A stretch of 64,000 bases of DNA from Escherichia coli (GTDB lineage: Bacteria > Pseudomonadota > Gammaproteobacteria > Enterobacterales > Enterobacteriaceae). The notes under the pieces are model-generated. The model did not search any database. It was not told the origin of the DNA and worked only from the letters and a program-made list of their open reading frames with translations. The position numbers were made by a program, and so were the translations under genes. Shown here in pieces: positions 5,105 to 42,558 of this stretch; position 1 is the first letter of the stretch, and the number at the start of each line of letters is the position of its first letter. The stretch lies in NCBI RefSeq assembly GCF_002854065.1, contig NZ_CP024147.1; one strand, given 5' to 3'.

Positions 5105-5631
5105 ATAAAACCGCCAGAAATCAGGGCAAAGATAATCCGCATTCCGGGAGTTGTGAGCCTTTCAACTATTTCTATTTCCAACGGTGGTTTGGGCTTTATA
5201 TATTTTTTTCTGATGGACTCTTGCTCAGTTTTTAAATAAAAATGCAAACTAAATTGCTTCAATTAAATAAAATCCCGACTATTACTCGATACGTGATTAT
5301 TGTCGGTGATTTTTTTGTACACCATCAGTGTATATCTCAATAACCCCTGAATAAGTAGCTCTGAATAGGTATAAGGGATGTAGCCATTTTTAAATGGATT
5401 TCTTATGCTAAAAATGATCGTCGATTTCCCCATAAAATGTGAGCGATGCCGAAAGAAATAAAATTAGTTATTGCATTTGAAGTTTGGATGAAAGATTATC
5501 ATTTGTCATACAAATGAGGAGTGGTATGTTGCTAGCCAATTAAAAAAGAACGCCATATTTATTGATGATTGCTCCCCCGGTGGGGGGGAAACATCGGGCA
5601 TAAATGGGCATGAAGTAATGGAGTATTAGTT

Positions 5632-22351: not shown

Positions 22352-23757
22352 TGAGCCAGTCACTGTTTAGCCAACCATTGAACGTTATTAACGTCGGCAT
22401 CGCCATGTTTAGCGATGACCTGAAAAAGCAGCATGTAGAAGTGACTCAACTCGACTGGACGCCGCCGGGGCAGGGCAATATGCAGGTGGTGCAGGCGCTG
22501 GATAACATTGCCGATTCGCCGCTGGCAGACAAAATCGCCGCCGCTAACCAGCAGGCGCTGGAGCGCATTATCCAGTCGCATCCGGTGCTGATTGGTTTTG
22601 ATCAGGCGATTAACGTGGTGCCGGGCATGACGCCGAAAACCATTCTTCACGCCGGGCCGCCGATCACCTGGGAAAAAATGTGCGGCGCGATGAAAGGCGC
22701 GGTCACCGGAGCGCTGGTGTTCGAAGGACTGGCGAAAGATCTCGACGAGGCGGCTGAACTGGCGGCTTCCGGGGAGATCACCTTCTCGCCGTGTCACGAG
22801 CACGACTGCGTGGGATCGATGGCGGGTGTTACCTCGGCCTCGATGTTTATGCACATCGTAAAAAACAAAACCTACGGCAACATCGCTTATACCAACATGA
22901 GCGAGCAGATGGCGAAGATTTTGCGTATGGGCGCTAACGACCAGAGCGTGATTGACCGCCTGAACTGGATGCGTGATGTGCAGGGACCAATACTGCGCGA
23001 CGCGATGAAAATTATCGGCGAAATCGATCTGCGCTTAATGCTGGCGCAGGCGCTGCATATGGGCGATGAGTGCCATAACCGCAATAACGCCGGGACGACG
23101 CTGCTGATTCAGGCGCTGACGCCGGGGATCATTCAGGCAGGTTATTCCGTCGAGCAACAGCGCGAAGTGTTTGAGTTTGTCGCCAGCAGCGACTACTTCT
23201 CCGGCCCGACGTGGATGGCGATGTGTAAAGCGGCGATGGATGCGGCGCACGGCATCGAATACAGCACCGTGGTCACCACCATGGCGCGTAACGGCGTCGA
23301 GTTCGGCCTGCGGGTCAGCGGATTACCGGGGCAATGGTTTACCGGTCCGGCGCAGCAGGTCATCGGCCCGATGTTTGCCGGTTATAAGCCGGAAGATTCG
23401 GGGCTGGATATCGGCGACAGTGCCATCACCGAAACCTACGGTATTGGCGGATTTGCCATGGCGACCGCGCCTGCAATCGTCGCGCTGGTGGGTGGCACGG
23501 TGGAAGAGGCTATCGATTTCTCCCGTCAGATGCGCGAAATCACCCTTGGCGAAAACCCCAACGTCACCATTCCGCTGCTTGGTTTTATGGGCGTGCCGTT
23601 GGCAATCGACATCACCCGCGTGGGTAGCAGCGGCATTCTGCCGGTGATCAACACCGCCATCGCCCATAAAGATGCGGGCGTCGGCATGATTGGCGCGGGC
23701 ATTGTGCATCCACCTTTTGCCTGCTTCGAGAAAGCCATTCTTGGTTACGGCGTCTGA
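22351..23757 (+). CDS. yahG: DUF1116 protein YahG (YlbE paralogue)
   Basis: 468-aa ORF, start overlaps yahF stop (ATGA). Confidence 0.75.
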   Translation: MSQSLFSQPLNVINVGIAMFSDDLKKQHVEVTQLDWTPPGQGNMQVVQALDNIADSPLADKIAAANQQALERIIQSHPVLIGFDQAINVVPGMTPKTILHAGPPITWEKMCGAMKGAVTGALVFEGLAKDLDEAAELAASGEITFSPCHEHDCVGSMAGVTSASMFMHIVKNKTYGNIAYTNMSEQMAKILRMGANDQSVIDRLNWMRDVQGPILRDAMKIIGEIDLRLMLAQALHMGDECHNRNNAGTTLLIQALTPGIIQAGYSVEQQREVFEFVASSDYFSGPTWMAMCKAAMDAAHGIEYSTVVTTMARNGVEFGLRVSGLPGQWFTGPAQQVIGPMFAGYKPEDSGLDIGDSAITETYGIGGFAMATAPAIVALVGGTVEEAIDFSRQMREITLGENPNVTIPLLGFMGVPLAIDITRVGSSGILPVINTAIAHKDAGVGMIGAGIVHPPFACFEKAILGYGV

Positions 23758-24859: not shown

Positions 24860-26242
24860 ATGAAAGAAAGCAATAGCCGCCGTGAGTTTTTGAGCCAGAG
24901 CGGTAAGATGGTCACCGCCGCCGCGTTGTTTGGTACGTCTGTGCCGCTCGCCCATGCGGCGGTAGCTGGCAACCTAAACTGCGACGCGAATAACACCATG
25001 AAAATCACTGACCCGCACTACTATCTCGACAACGTGCTGCTGGAAACCGGTTTTGACTACGAAAACGGTGTGGCGGTGTAGACCCGCACGGCGCGCCAGA
25101 CCGTGGAGATTCAGAACGGTAAAATTGTTGCGCTGCGCGAGAACAAGCAGCATCCGGACGCCACGCTGCCGCACTATGACGCTGGCGGTAAGCTGATGCT
25201 GCCCACCACCCGCGACATGCATATTCATCTCGACAAAACCTTTTACGGCGGGCCGTGGCGCTCACTCAATCGTCCGGCTGGCACCACCATTCAGGACATG
25301 ATTAAGCTCGAGCAGAAAATGCTGCCGGAACTGCAACCGTATACTCAGGAACGGGCGGAAAAACTGATCGATTTATTGCAGTCGAAAGGCACTACCATTG
25401 CCCGCAGCCACTGCAATATCGAACCGGTTTCCGGCCTGAAAAATCTGCAAAATTTGCAGGCGGTGCTGGCGCGACGTCAGGCGGGCTTCGAGTGTGAAAT
25501 TGTCGCCTTCCCGCAGCACGGTTTGCTGCTGTCGAAATCGGAACCCTTAATGCGCGAAGCAATGCAGGCAGGGGCGCATTACGTTGGCGGGCTGGACCCA
25601 ACCAGTGTTGATGGCGCGATGGAAAAATCCCTCGACACCATGTTCCAGATTGCGCTGGACTACGACAAAGGCGTCGATATTCACCTGCACGAAACCACTC
25701 CGGCAGGCGTGGCGGCCATCAATTATATGGTTGAAACAGTGGAGAAAACGCCGCAACTGAAGGGCAAACTGACCATCAGCCATGCCTTTGCGCTGGCAAC
25801 ACTCAACGAGCAACAGGTAGATGAACTGGCTAACCGGATGGTGGTGCAGCAAATTTCTATCGCCTCGACGGTGCCGATTGGTACGCTGCATATGCCGCTC
25901 AAACAGTTACACGACAAAGGCGTAAAAGTGATGACTGGCACTGACAGCGTTATCGACCACTGGTCGCCTTATGGTCTGGGCGACATGCTGGAAAAAGCCA
26001 ATCTCTACGCGCAGCTCTATATTCGTCCTAACGAACAGAACCTCTCCCGTTCGCTGTTTCTAGCCACTGGCGATGTATTGCCGCTGAATGAAAAAGGCGA
26101 GCGTGTATGGCCAAAAGCGCAGGATGACGCCAGCTTTGTGCTGGTGGACGCCTCCTGTTCCGCCGAGGCGGTGGCGCGTATCTCGCCGAGAACCGCAACG
26201 TTCCATAAAGGGCAACTGGTGTGGGGGAGTGTGGCAGGTTGA
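24860..26242 (+). pseudogene. yahJ: yahJ, Tat-signal amidohydrolase/deaminase, interrupted by in-frame TAG at 25079-25081
   Basis: ORF 24860..25081 encodes a twin-arginine signal peptide (SRREFLSQSG...AHA); same frame continues after the TAG into the amidohydrolase domain ORF 25103..26242 (HIHLDKT metal-binding motif). Confidence 0.8.
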
Positions 26243-33533: not shown

Positions 33534-33544
33534 TGGATTTGCCC

Positions 33545-34450
33545 CTATATTTCCAGACATCTGTTATCACTTAACCCATTACAAGCCCGCTGCCGCAGAT
33601 ATTCCCGTGGCGAGCGATAACCCAGCGCACTATGCGGATGCCATTCGTTATAATGCTCGAACGCCTCTGCAAGGTTCTTTGCTGCCGTTAACCCGTCTGG
33701 TTTGGGCATGATACTGATGTAGTCACGCTTTATCGTTTTCACGAAGCTCTCTGCTATTCCGTTACTCTCCGGACTCCGCACCGCCGTGTTCTTCGGTTCA
33801 AGTCCCAACATCCGGGCGAACTGGCGTGTTTCATTAGCCCGGTAGCATGAACCATTATCCGTCAGCCACTCCACTGGAGACGACGGAAGATCGTTGCCGA
33901 AGCGGCGTTCCACCGCTCCCAGCATGACGTCCTGTACTGTTTCACTGTTGAAGCCGCCGGTAGTGACCGCCCAGTGCAGTGCCTCACGATCACAGCAGTC
34001 CAGCGCGAACGTGACACGCAGTCTCTCTCCGTTATCACAGCAGAACTCGAACCCGTCAGAGCACCATCGCTGATTGCTTTCTTTCACGGCCACTCTGCCT
34101 GTATGTGCCCGTTTCGATGGCGGTACAGCAGGTTTTCGCTCAAGCAACAGCGCATTCTGGCGCATGATCCGGTAAACACGTTTGGCATTGATCGCAGGCA
34201 TACCATCAAGTTCTGCCTGTCTGCGAAGCAGCGCCCATACCCGACGATAACCATACGTGGGCAGCTCTCCGATAACATGGTGTATACGGAGAAGCACATC
34301 CGTATCATCAGTGTGACGACTGCGGCGGCCATCCATCCAGTCATCGGTTCGTCTGAGAATGACGTGCAACTGCGCACGCGACACCCGGAGACAACGGCTG
34401 ACTAAGCTTACTCCCCATCCCCGGGCAATAAGGGCGCGTGCGCTATCCAC
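33545..34450 (-). CDS. insD: IS2 transposase OrfB (InsD), DDE integrase domain
   Basis: 301-aa ORF inside the IS2 element with IS3-family transposase catalytic domain. Confidence 0.9.
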
Positions 34451-34773
34451 TTTTTTGCCCGTCCATATTCAACGGCTTCTTTGAGGAGTTCATTTTCCAT
34501 CGTTTTCTTGCCGAGCAGGCGCTGGAGTTCTTTAATCTGCTTCATGGCGGCAGCAAGTTCAGAGGCAGGAACAACCTGTTCTCCGGCGGCGACAGCAGTA
34601 AGACTTCCTTCCTGGTATTGCTTACGCCAGAGAAATAACTGGCTGGCTGCTACACCATGTTGCCGGGCAACGAGGGAGACCGTCATCCCCGGTTCAAAGC
34701 TCTGCTGAACAATTGCGATCTTTTCCTGTGTGGTACGCCGTCTGCGTTTCTCCGGCCCTAAGACATCAATCAT
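34408..34773 (-). CDS. insC: IS2 OrfA (InsC), HTH transposase N-terminal protein
   Basis: ORF track 34408..34818; start at [18 protein letters not shown] (121 aa); overlaps insD in -1 frame as expected for IS3-family frameshift. Confidence 0.9.
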
Positions 34774-34864
34774 CTGTTCTCCAATGACTAGTCTAAAAAC
34801 TAGTATTAAGACTATCACTTATTTAAGTGATATTGGTTGTCTGGAGATTCAGGGGGCCAGTCTA

Positions 34865-37033: not shown

Positions 37034-38620
37034 TCAGCTTTTCAGCCGCCGCCAGAACGTCGTCCGGCTGATGCCTAAATAATTCGCCGCTGCTGTTTTA
37101 TCGCCATTAAATTTCTCCAGTGCCTGTTGTGGTGTCAGCAAGCGTGGAGCGGGAATTTTCGCCGACTCGCGCGCCAGTTCCGGCAGTAGCAGCTGCAAAA
37201 ACTGCGGCGTTAAATCCGGCGTCGGTTCCACACTTAAAAACAGCGCCAGTCGCTCCATCATATTGCGCAGTTCTCGAATATTGCCCGGCCAGTCGTAGCG
37301 CAGCAGCACAGTTTCACTTGCCTGTAACCCCTGGCGTAATGCAGCAGAAAATGGGGCGGAGAGCGCCGCCAGAGACACTTTCAAAAAACTTTCCGCCAGT
37401 GGCAGAATATCTGCCACCCGCTCGCGCAGTGGTGGCAATTGCAGACGCAAAATACTCAGCCGATAAAACAGATCACGGCGAAAACGTCCTTGCTGCATAT
37501 CTTCTTCCAGATTGCAGTGAGTGGCGCTAATGACCCGTACATCTACCGGAACAGGCTGATGCCCGCCGACGCGGGTGACCTCTTTTTCTTCCAGCACCCG
37601 TAACAGGCGAGTCTGCAAAGGTAGCGGCATTTCGCCAATCTCATCCAGAAACAGCGTACCGCCGTGGGCAATTTCGAACAGCCCGGCGCGACCTCCGCGT
37701 CGCGAGCCGGTAAACGCCCCTTCCTCATAGCCAAACAGCTCCGATTCCAGCAGCGATTCGGCTATCGCCCCGCAGTTGACGGCAACAAACGGATGCGACT
37801 TTTTGCCCTGTCGCGCATCGTGGCGGGCAAAATATTCCCGATGAATCGCCTGGGCCGCCAGCTCTTTGCCCGTCCCCGTTTCCCCCTCAATCAACACCGC
37901 TGCACTGGAGCGGGCATACAGCAAAATAGTCTGCCGTACTTGTTCCATCGGTGGTGATTGACCGAGCATATCGCCCAGCACGTAACGAGTACGCAGGGCG
38001 TTACGGGTAGCATCGTGAGTGTTATGGCGTAACGACATGCGCGTCATATCCCGCGCATCGCTGAACGCCTGGCGCACGGTGGCGGCGGAATAGATAAAAA
38101 TTCCGGTCATTCCGGCTTCTTCTGCCAGATCGGTAATCAGCCCCGCACCGACCACCGCTTCGGTGCCGTTAGCTTTTAGCTCGTTAATCTGCCCGCGTGC
38201 GTCTTCTTCGGTAATGTAGCTACGTTGGTCGAGGCGCAAATTAAAGGTTTTTTGAAACGCCACCAGTGCCGGAATAGTTTCCTGATAAGTGACAACGCCG
38301 ATAGAAGAGGTGAGTTTTCCGGCTTTTGACAGTGCCTGTAACACATCGTAGCCGCTCGGTTTAATCAAAATAACTGGTACTGACAGGCGGCTTTTCAGGT
38401 ACGCGCCGTTAGAGCCAGCAGCGATGATGGCGTCACAGCGTTCGTTTGCCAGTTTCTTGCGGATGTAGGTCACTGCTTTTTCAAAGCCAAGCTGAATAGG
38501 GGTAATGTTCGCCAGGTGATCAAACTCGAGGCTGATATCGCGAAACAGCTCGAACAGGCGCGTTACAGATACCGTCCAGATAACCGGTTTGTCGTCATTA
38601 AGCCGTGGTGGATGTGCCAT
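37034..38620 (-). CDS. prpR: sigma-54-dependent activator of propionate catabolism PrpR
   Basis: ORF track 37034..38632; start at MAHPPRL (528 aa); AAA+ sigma-54 interaction motifs ([14 protein letters not shown]) and C-terminal Fis-type HTH. Confidence 0.9.
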
Positions 38621-38806
38621 AGCGCACCGCAAAGTTAAGAAACCGAATATTGGGTTTAGCCTTGTTTCATAATTGTTGCAATGAAACGCGGTGAAACATT
38701 GCCTGAAACGTTAACTGAAACGCATATTTGCGGATTAGTTCATGATTTTATCTCTAACAAATTGAAATTAAAGATTTAATTTTATTAAGGCAATTGTGGC
38801 ACACCC

Positions 38807-38822
38807 CTTGCTTTGTGATTAT
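38807..38822 (+). promoter_or_regulatory. sigma-54 promoter of prpBCDE (TGGCAC-N5-TTGC)
   Basis: tggcacaccccttgct matches the -24 GG / -12 GC consensus exactly, 37 bp upstream of prpB start. Confidence 0.8.
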
Positions 38823-38858
38823 CAACGCAAATAACAAGTTGATAACAAAGGATGGGCT

Positions 38859-39749
38859 ATGTCTCTACACTCTCCAGGTAAAGCGTTTCGCGCTGCACTA
38901 AGCAAAGAAACCCCGTTGCAAATTGTTGGCACCATCAACGCTAACCATGCGCTGCTGGCGCAGCGTGCCGGATATCAGGCAATTTATCTCTCCGGCGGTG
39001 GCGTGGCGGCAGGGTCGCTGGGGCTGCCCGATCTCGGTATTTCTACTCTTGATGACGTGTTGACAGATATTCGCCGTATCACCGACGTTTGTTCGCTGCC
39101 GCTGCTGGTGGATGCGGATATCGGTTTTGGTTCTTCGGCCTTTAACGTGGCGCGCACCGTGAAATCGATGATTAAAGCTGGTGCGGCAGGATTGCATATT
39201 GAAGATCAGGTTGGTGCGAAACGCTGCGGTCATCGTCCGAATAAAGCGATCGTCTCGAAAGAGGAGATGGTGGATCGGATCCGTGCGGCGGTGGATGCGA
39301 AAACCGATCCTGATTTTGTGATCATGGCGCGCACCGATGCGCTGGCGGTAGAGGGGCTGGATGCGGCGATCGAGCGTGCGCAGGCCTATGTTGAAGCGGG
39401 TGCCGAGATGTTGTTCCCGGAGGCGATTACCGAACTCGCCATGTACCGCCAGTTTGCCGATGCGGTGCAGGTGCCAATCCTCGCCAACATTACCGAATTT
39501 GGCGCCACGCCGCTGTTTACCACCGACGAATTACGCAGCGCTCATGTCGCGATGGCGCTGTACCCGCTTTCAGCGTTTCGCGCCATGAACCGCGCCGCCG
39601 AACATGTCTACAACGTCCTGCGCCAGGAAGGCACGCAGAAAAGCGTCATCGACACCATGCAGACCCGCAACGAGCTGTACGAAAGCATCAACTACTACCA
39701 GTACGAAGAGAAGCTCGACGACCTGTTTGCCCGTAGCCAGGCGAAATAA
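38859..39749 (+). CDS. prpB: 2-methylisocitrate lyase PrpB
   Basis: 296 aa; PEP mutase/isocitrate lyase family motifs. Confidence 0.95.
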
Positions 39750-39769
39750 AAAACGCCCGTTGGTTGTAT

Positions 39770-39860
39770 TCGACAACCGATGCCTGATGCGCCGCTGACG
39801 CGACTTATCAGGCCTACGGGGTGAACTGTAGGTCGGATAAGACGCATGGCGTCGCATCCG
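39770..39860. repeat. REP elements between prpB and prpC
   Basis: gcctgatgcgccgctgacgcgacttatcaggcctac and tgtaggtcggataagacgcatggcgtcgcatccgac REP-type palindromes. Confidence 0.8.
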
Positions 39861-39904
39861 ACAACAATCTCGACCCTACAAATGATAACAATGACGAGGA
39901 CAAT

Positions 39905-41073
39905 ATGAGCGACACAACGATCCTGCAAAACAGTACCCATGTCATTAAACCGAAAAAATCTGTGGCGCTTTCTGGCGTTCCGGCGGGCAATACGGCGCTC
40001 TGCACCGTGGGTAAAAGTGGCAATGACTTGCATTACCGTGGCTACGATATTCTTGATCTGGCGGAACATTGCGAATTTGAAGAAGTGGCGCATCTGCTGA
40101 TCCACGGCAAACTGCCGACCCGTGACGAACTCGCCGCCTACAAAACGAAACTGAAAGCCCTGCGCGGTTTACCGGCTAACGTGCGTACCGTGCTGGAAGC
40201 CTTACCGGCGGGTCACACCCGATGGATGTTATGCGCACCGGCGTTTCCGCGCTCGGCTGCACGCTGCCAGAAAAAGAGGGGCATACCGTCTCTGGCGCGC
40301 GGGATATTGCCGACAAACTGCTGGCGTCACTTAGCTCGATTCTTCTCTACTGGTATCACTACAGCCATAACGGCGAACGCATCCAGCCGGAAACCGATGA
40401 CGACTCCATCGGCGGTCACTTCCTGCATCTGCTGCACGGCGAAAAGCCGTCGCAAAGCTGGGAAAAGGCGATGCATATTTCGCTGGTGCTGTACGCCGAA
40501 CACGAGTTTAACGCTTCCACCTTTACCAGTCGGGTGATTGCGGGCACCGGCTCTGATATGTATTCCGCGATTATTGGCGCGATTGGCGCACTGCGCGGGC
40601 CGAAACACGGCGGGGCGAATGAAGTGTCGCTGGAGATCCAGCAACGCTACGAAACGCCAGACGAAGCCGAAGCAGATATCCGCAAGCGCGTGGAAAACAA
40701 AGAAGTGGTCATTGGTTTTGGGCATCCGGTTTATACCATCGCCGACCCGCGCCACCAGGTGATTAAACGTGTGGCGAAGCAGCTCTCGCAGGAAGGCGGC
40801 TCGCTGAAGATGTACAACATCGCCGATCGCCTGGAAACGGTGATGTGGGAGAGCAAAAAGATGTTCCCCAATCTCGACTGGTTCTCCGCTGTTTCCTACA
40901 ACATGATGGGCGTTCCCACCGAGATGTTCACACCACTGTTTGTTATCGCTCGCGTCACCGGCTGGGCGGCGCACATTATCGAACAACGTCAGGACAACAA
41001 AATTATCCGTCCTTCCGCCAATTATGTTGGACCGGAAGACCGCCAGTTTGTCGCGCTGGATAAGCGCCAGTAA
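39905..41073 (+). pseudogene. prpC: prpC (2-methylcitrate synthase) with -1 frameshift near 40205-40215
   Basis: Frame from ATG 39905 (MSDTTILQNSTHVIKPKK…) leaves the citrate-synthase sequence after …VLEALPA and stops at 40537; remainder ([13 protein letters not shown]… to KRQ) is in the -1 frame (ORF 40222..41073). Confidence 0.8.
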
Positions 41074-41106: not shown

Positions 41107-42558
41107 ATGTCAGCTCAAATCAACAACATCCGCCCGGAATTTGATCGTGAAATCGTTGATATCGTCGATTACGTGATGAACTACGAAATCAGCTCCAAAG
41201 TGGCCTACGACACCGCACATTACTGCCTGCTCGACACGCTCGGCTGCGGTCTTGAAGCTCTCGAATACCCGGCCTGTAAAAAACTGCTGGGGCCAATTGT
41301 CCCCGGCACCGTCGTACCTAACGGCGTGCGCGTCCCCGGAACTCAGTTCCAGCTCGACCCCGTCCAGGCGGCATTTAACATCGGCGCGATGATCCGTTGG
41401 CTCGATTTCAACGATACCTGGCTGGCGGCGGAGTGGGGGCATCCTTCCGACAACCTCGGCGGCATTCTGGCAACGGCAGACTGGCTTTCGCGCAACGCGG
41501 TCGCCAGCGGCAAAGCGCCGTTGACCATGAAACAGGTGCTGACCGGAATGATTAAAGCCCATGAAATTCAGGGCTGCATCGCGCTGGAAAACTCCTTTAA
41601 CCGCGTCGGCCTCGACCACGTTCTGTTAGTGAAAGTGGCTTCCACCGCCGTGGTCGCCGAAATACTTGGCCTGACCCGCGAGGAAATTCTCAACGCTGTT
41701 TCGCTGGCGTGGGTGGACGGTCAGTCGCTGCGCACCTATCGCCATGCGCCGAACACCGGCACGCGTAAATCCTGGGCGGCGGGCGATGCCACTTCCCGCG
41801 CGGTACGTCTGGCACTGATGGCGAAAACGGGCGAAATGGGTTACCCGTCAGCCCTGACTGCGCCTGGGTGGGGCTTCTACGACGTCTCCTTTAAAGGTGA
41901 GTCGTTCCGCTTCCAGCGTCCGTACGGTTCTTACGTGATGGAAAATGTGCTGTTCAAAATCTCCTTCCCGGCGGAGTTCCACTCCCAGACGGCAGTTGAA
42001 GCGGCGATGACGCTCTATGAACAGATGCAGGCAGCAGGCAAAACGGCGGCGGATATCGAAAAAGTGACCATTCGCACCCACGAAGCCTGTATTCGCATCA
42101 TCGACAAAAAAGGGCCGCTCAATAACCCAGCAGACCGCGATCACTGCATTCAGTACATGGTGGCGATCCCGCTGCTATTCGGGCGCTTAACGGCGGCAGA
42201 TTACGAGGGCAACGTTGCGCAAGATAAACGCATTGACGCCCTGCGCGAGAAGATCAATTGCTTTGAAGATCCGTCATTTACCGCTGACTACCACGACCCG
42301 GAAAAACGCGCTATTGCCAATGCCATAACCCTTGAGTTCACCGACGGCACGCGCTTTGAAGAAGTGGTGGTGGAGTACCCCATTGGTCATGCTCGCCGCC
42401 GTCAGGATGGCATTCCGAAGCTGGTCGATAAATTCAAAATCAATCTCGCGCGCCAGTTCCCGACTCGCCAGCAGCAGCGCATTCTGGAGGTTTCTCTCGA
42501 CAGAACTCGCCTGGAACAGATGCCGGTCAATGAGTATCTCGACCTGTACGTCATTTAA
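41107..42558 (+). CDS. prpD: 2-methylcitrate dehydratase PrpD
   Basis: 483-aa ORF, MmgE/PrpD family. Confidence 0.95.

Follow-up and report, generated by a model that had tools for sequence, protein, structure and literature searches.

A prpC frameshift, either young or artefactual, downstream of an intact sigma-54/PrpR control region in Escherichia coli

How should an operon be read if its promoter and its activator gene are whole and the gene for the enzyme that makes the activator's ligand is broken? The prp locus of an Escherichia coli genome raises this question. We analyzed a 64-kb stretch of DNA (the window), which the annotations of near-identical strains identify as the yah-prp-cod-cyn-lac region of the E. 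coli chromosome. A sequence-only reading had flagged positions 38621–38858 of the window, where it saw an exact sigma-54 promoter element and an intact prpR upstream of a frameshifted prpC. We are confident that this is a canonical divergent prp control region in which all of the DNA elements and prpR are intact, that the prpC lesion would be expected to silence the operon, and that this lesion is either young or an artefact.

The interval 38621–38858 is the entire 238-bp spacer between prpR and prpB. By coordinates and the list of open reading frames, the prpR start codon lies at 38620–38618 on the minus strand, and the ATG of prpB is at 38859. Within this spacer, TGGCACaccccTTGC is located at 38797–38811. 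The full -24/-12 promoter of prpBCDE occupies 38797–38812 on the plus strand and reads TGGCAC-acccc-TTGCT (TGGCACACCCCTTGCT). Its GG (38798–38799) and its GC (38810–38811) are spaced by exactly 10 bp, and the core has no mismatches. The element ends 47 bp 5' of the prpB ATG, and the divergent gene prpR encodes a Sigma54_activat protein.

Could this element be a chance match and not a promoter? TGGCAC-N5-TTGC matches the window just once, at 38797–38811 on the plus strand, facing prpB. Without its context, the bare motif is weak evidence and is not significant: 0.27 occurrences are expected by chance per 64-kb window, and 25 of 100 shuffled sequences had at least one match. A match within the 238-bp spacer in the correct orientation is expected just ~5e-4 times, as calculated from the window-wide rate. 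Furthermore, the sigma-54 ChIP-seq map of K-12 lists the very same 17-mer, GTGGCACACCCCTTGCT, as site OS01 ahead of prpB (PMC4591121), and a gSELEX experiment with RpoN holoenzyme gave a peak within the prpR/prpB spacer (PMC8743547). We assigned the promoter because of its placement and orientation beside the activator gene, the bound K-12 17-mer, and its conservation across genera (described below). Against this evidence, a chance occurrence is already refuted and has next to no probability. Given the identical site in K-12, Esigma54 is predicted to bind at 38797–38812 in this strain as well.

Scanning for half-sites identified the PrpR enhancer (UAS) at 38664–38721. It has five TGAAAC/GTTTCA half-sites: GTTTCA at 38664–38669, and TGAAAC at 38682–38687, 38692–38697, 38704–38709, and 38716–38721. 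These lie 76–133 bp upstream of the -24 element and match the published PrpR enhancer consensus, CGTTTCATGAAACG (PMC4987338 Table 1). To survey conservation, we took the 400 bp that precede prpB in each of 80 species-level prpB loci and scored them for TGGCA[CT]-N5-T[TC]GC and for at least two half-sites, and the two features co-occur in 60 of the 80 loci. Another 12 loci (Acinetobacter, Pseudomonas, and others) have neither a sigma-54 element nor a PrpR homologue; 11 of these have no half-sites, and the twelfth (L084) has one. An alignment of 13 enterobacterial species has two conserved islands, the enhancer and the -24/-12 element, and the remainder is divergent and variable in length. The enhancer is the most conserved block of this alignment, and T197–A201 and T208–T212 at the sigma-54 element are invariant. 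As for close relatives, strains 100416 and CUWW06 have exactly this spacer. There are five substitutions relative to K-12, all of them outside the -24/-12 core and the enhancer half-sites. Judged by its sequence, the architecture of the spacer is the known one, and all of it is present here.

Between the enhancer and the promoter lies an AT-rich stretch (38741–38796; 65–90% A+T in 20-bp bins), which is presumed to be the IHF bending region. It contains IHF-like matches (one mismatch to WATCAANNNNTTR) at 38755–38767, 38766–38778, and 38769–38781, and neither its sequence nor its length is conserved between genera. The sole perfect match to the IHF consensus is on the minus strand at 38832–38844, downstream of the -12 element. 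The AT-rich stretch is a candidate location for an IHF site. We dropped the placement of CRP and IHF sites by consensus, which gave just matches with one or two mismatches. The best CRP-like site (38814–38829, two mismatches) was rejected: it relies on a rare GA allele that is absent from K-12. Scanning the spacer with a sigma-70 pattern for PprpR gave one minus-strand match (38845 to 38818), a result that shuffled sequences equal.

The GA allele is at 38817–38818, immediately 3' of the -12 element, where K-12 has CT. The 61-mer around it was found in 5 of 4,882 records. On the minus strand, the allele changes the hexamer GATAAA to GATAAT, a possible -10 box for prpR, and it also generates a CRP-like TGTGA half-site. 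The -10 box of prpR is mentioned in the literature as differing between strains (PMC7360682), a difference that may or may not be this one. Next to this allele, between the -12 element and the Shine-Dalgarno sequence, is a perfect 8-bp inverted repeat (TTATCAAC-N11-GTTGATAA, 38819–38845). It encloses the perfect IHF consensus match on the minus strand and is kept in Escherichia, Citrobacter, and Kluyvera, but not in Salmonella.

Transcription of prpB is predicted to start near 38823, as deduced from the spacing to the -12 element and from the "distance 36" that is given for the K-12 site. The putative 5' UTR of prpB (38823–38858, plus strand) includes the Shine-Dalgarno sequence AGGA at 38849–38852. 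It has no significant RNA structure (z = 0.38), and there are no Rfam matches in the prpR-prpB spacer. Because the RNA fold is not significant, a protein site at the DNA level seems more likely than an RNA structure as an explanation for the inverted repeat.

The activator gene is also whole. prpR (37034–38620, minus strand) encodes a sigma-54 enhancer-binding protein of 528 amino acids, which scores well above the cutoffs of two NCBIfam equivalogs (NF011953, 1000.3 bits versus a cutoff of 703; TIGR02329, 881.4 bits versus 499.2). Its Pfam domains are in the order PrpR_N (36–196), Sigma54_activat (219–393), AAA_lid_14 (399–462), and HTH_8 (498–527). The GAFTGS loop (identified by eye), the Walker B motif LFLDE, and RRDLFYR are all present. 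At the DNA level, prpR does not differ from strains 100416 and CUWW06; relative to K-12, the protein has seven amino acid differences. Divergent from prpR, the genes are in the order prpB-prpC-prpD-prpE, in agreement with K-12 and with the annotations of the relatives. Three of these, all on the plus strand, are intact: prpB (38859–39749), which encodes 2-methylisocitrate lyase (296 amino acids; NF008455, 560.2 bits versus a cutoff of 353); prpD (41107–42558), which encodes 2-methylcitrate dehydratase (483 amino acids); and prpE (42598–44484), which encodes propionyl-CoA synthetase (628 amino acids). Beyond prpE, between it and codB, a 94-bp REP-type unit is repeated 7.6 times in tandem (44509–45224), in an array that the relatives also have. 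Seven of these copies match the nucleoid-associated noncoding RNA family naRNA4 of Rfam (RF02564) above the gathering score.

The exception is prpC (39905–41073, plus strand), the gene for 2-methylcitrate synthase. Compared with K-12 and with the two near-clonal strains, the gene has lost a C between 40211 and 40212, at codon 103, so that GCGGCG becomes GCGGG (in context, CCGGCGGCGTCAC becomes CCGGCGGGTCAC). The frameshifted product has 210 amino acids, of which 102 are native and 108 are out of frame, and it ends at a stop codon at 40535–40537. The Pfam domain Citrate_synt is split, with model positions 2–91 in one frame and 88–357 in another, and both fragments fall under the cutoff of NF009006 (150.1 and 543.4 bits versus 550). 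As translated, the deletion is predicted to remove most of the catalytic domain of the enzyme. Re-inserting the C gives a PrpC of 389 amino acids that has two amino acid differences from K-12 and whose DNA is identical to that of CUWW06, and we found no second lesion in the gene. Overall, the sequence-only reading was right about the sigma-54 element in the flagged interval, about the intact prpR, and about the frameshift in prpC. Upstream of prpC, the spacer from prpB (39750–39904) is 155 bp of REP-like sequence here, versus 439 bp in K-12. Variation in the number of repeats in this spacer has been reported (PMC7360682), and a query across it was covered at 80% or more in only 3,455 of 5,222 records.

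What would the loss of PrpC do to the promoter? Propionate does not induce the operon directly: it is turned by PrpE and PrpC into 2-methylcitrate, which is the co-activator of PrpR, and induction of prp also needs sigma-54, IHF, and CRP (PMC5566544, PMC4987338). In the proposed mechanism, PrpR, which is transcribed leftward, would bind the TGAAAC/GTTTCA enhancer at 38664–38721, and the DNA would bend across the AT-rich spacer. PrpR with 2-methylcitrate bound would then spend ATP to open the closed complex of sigma-54 at 38797–38811, and the opened complex would drive prpBCDE. The prpC lesion would eliminate both one step of the pathway and the synthesis of the inducer, so that PprpB would stay at its basal level and prpB, prpD, and prpE would be effectively silent. 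In other words, because PrpC makes the co-activator of PrpR, losing PrpC should render an intact promoter uninducible. The regulatory circuit is whole in sequence and probably broken in function. Past the premature stop, 536 nucleotides are left untranslated, which could further lower prpD and prpE through Rho-dependent polarity. On the other hand, the citrate synthase GltA can produce some 2-methylcitrate from propionyl-CoA, so induction may be lowered and not abolished.

We then asked if the deletion is found in other sequences, and a search of about 5,200 complete E. coli genomes gave no second case. No gapless match to the 61-mer across the site was found among 4,709 records. When we used a 220-base query across the site, every sampled match among 5,212 records spans 221 bases. 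The metagenome_contigs collection has no copy of a 25-mer that spans the deletion, and the frameshift products of 210 and 238 amino acids are absent from a collection of 15 billion proteins. This protein collection does contain exact copies of the C-terminal prpC fragment of 283 amino acids, which we rejected as evidence of a shared break. The contigs with this fragment are from diverse lineages (96–99% identity to the window), and they start at that codon or after a scaffold gap. The only internal case (L086) carries the intact GCGGCG. Also, no break was found at the start of this fragment in the sampled matches to complete genomes (5,212 records). We take the common start of these fragments to be a by-product of exact-sequence look-up and not a hot spot.

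The nearest relatives have the intact gene. CUWW06 (NZ_CP182139.1) differs from the window by 19 SNPs in 61.7 kb; over 26 kb, CUWW06 differs by 6 SNPs and 100416 (NZ_CM128593.1) by 14–15 SNPs. Both strains are annotated with an intact prpC (WP_001285909.1), which is otherwise base-identical to prpC of the window. Over ~62 kb and with IS elements set aside, there are just two small indels relative to CUWW06 besides that in prpC: a change at a G7/G8 homopolymer and an in-frame change of 12 bp. The homopolymer is a G-run at 5582, between rclR and ykgE; its length differs by one base from CUWW06, and apart from prpC the window has no further indel of this size. The 12-bp change, at 23743, shortens the 3' end of yahG in frame, relative to both near-clonal relatives. 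prpC is the sole gene in the window that is frameshifted relative to these strains, and the rest of the assembly is clean.

These near-identical genomes differ mainly in their IS elements. In the window, an IS2 of 1,331 bp lies in yahL (33534–34864), with a 5-bp target duplication (GCTGA), and it is missing from both of the nearest relatives. No complete E. coli genome shares the exact IS2/yahL junction, and a few carry IS2 elsewhere in yahL; the junction was dropped as a marker for the clone, as it is in no other complete genome. Conversely, three IS1 copies of CUWW06 are absent from the window, at about 1100, 15989, and 20810. Another gene with a lesion is yahJ (24860–26242), which has an internal stop at codon 74. 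As this stop is common to 100416 and CUWW06, yahJ is an older, lineage-wide pseudogene, unlike the lesion in prpC.

Given these results, either the prpC lesion arose very recently or one base was miscalled. If the frameshift arose during sequencing or assembly, then the prp locus is functional and inducible; we consider this quite possible, although short of probable. As would fit an error, the deletion is in no other public sequence that we searched and prpC is otherwise identical to the intact allele. There is also a precedent, in that acs, cobB, and prpE seemed frameshifted in a different E. coli assembly and Sanger resequencing showed these frameshifts to be errors (PMC7360682), and the other 1-bp difference, at 5582, is at an error-prone type of site. 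However, the C that is missing from prpC was outside any homopolymer, and over ~62 kb prpC is alone in having a frameshift that the relatives lack. The reality of the deletion is beyond the reach of a single assembly; the non-homopolymer site and the clean assembly favour a real mutation.

A real deletion might also have been selected, with the loss of PrpC being adaptive (for example, by sparing the cost or toxicity of intermediates of the 2-methylcitrate cycle in a propionate-rich gut). One lesion in the enzyme that makes the inducer suffices to shut the operon, and the lineage has lost other genes nearby (the internal stop in yahJ, which is shared with the relatives, and IS2 in yahL). We nevertheless rate selection as improbable: this particular deletion (as opposed to other lesions in prpC) recurs in no complete genome that was searched, both of the nearest relatives retain an intact prpC, and a lone event in one genome is indistinguishable from drift. 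It is far less plausible still that this is an old and decaying pseudo-operon whose prpR and promoter are retained for another role. Nothing speaks for this beyond the intact prpR and spacer; against it, prpB, prpD, and prpE are whole and the frameshift is the sole lesion of prpC. The intactness itself is uninformative. The window diverges from its nearest relative (CUWW06) by 3.1e-4 per site, so since the split just 0.56 neutral substitutions are expected in prpR and the spacer together, and the probability of seeing none is 0.57.

This calculation bears on the interpretation that the sequence-only reading had given. It took the intact prpR and promoter as a sign that the regulatory side is maintained, and this does not hold up: with a probability of 0.57 that no substitution would occur, their intactness is expected by chance and is no evidence of maintenance. 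The regulatory side is maintained in the sense that its sequence is whole; functionally it should be broken, as PrpC is the source of the inducer. Similarly, "recent inactivation" fits a deletion that was seen nowhere else and whose relatives are intact, but a base-calling error fits equally well. As for a reporter fusion to the prp promoter with propionate induction, which had been suggested as a check, even a sound promoter would test negative in this strain; prpC in trans or a prpC+ host would be needed.

If the deletion is real, then we predict that this strain cannot use propionate via the 2-methylcitrate cycle and that PprpB is not induced. Propionate-inducible expression (of the pPro type) or propionate biosensing would fail in this host. 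A real and recent deletion would also be a natural one-hit silencing of the sigma-54/PrpR circuit and of four genes. Selection where propionate is abundant may have favoured it, and inserting one base would undo it; we consider this extended scenario unlikely. The significance of the lesion is mostly limited to annotation. A frameshift that is in a single assembly needs confirmation before the gene is labeled as a pseudogene, and if a lesion is this young, then intact neighbouring genes are uninformative about selection.

The promoter, the enhancer, the activator, and the dependence on 2-methylcitrate are already known and are textbook material for E. coli and Salmonella. The prpR-PprpB-prpBCDE regulon of K-12 and Salmonella enterica shares its gene order and the 238-bp length of its spacer with this locus, and the -24/-12 17-mer and the enhancer half-sites are identical. 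Relative to K-12, what differs here are the five substitutions in the spacer (including the rare GA at 38817–38818), the 155-bp spacer between prpB and prpC, and the frameshifted prpC. The strains 100416 and CUWW06 are closer yet: their prpR, spacer, prpB, and prpD are identical to those of the window and their prpC is one base apart. They differ in that they carry the missing C and in their IS elements, with IS1 copies there and the IS2 in yahL only in the window. More broadly, PrpR resembles NorR, FhlA, and RtcR, whose AAA+ domain is kept inactive and is released when the N-terminal domain binds a small-molecule signal (PMC4987338). Unlike in those circuits, the ligand of PrpR comes from an enzyme under PrpR control, PrpC. 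Because the operon makes the ligand of its own activator, a lesion in one of its structural genes feeds back on its regulation.
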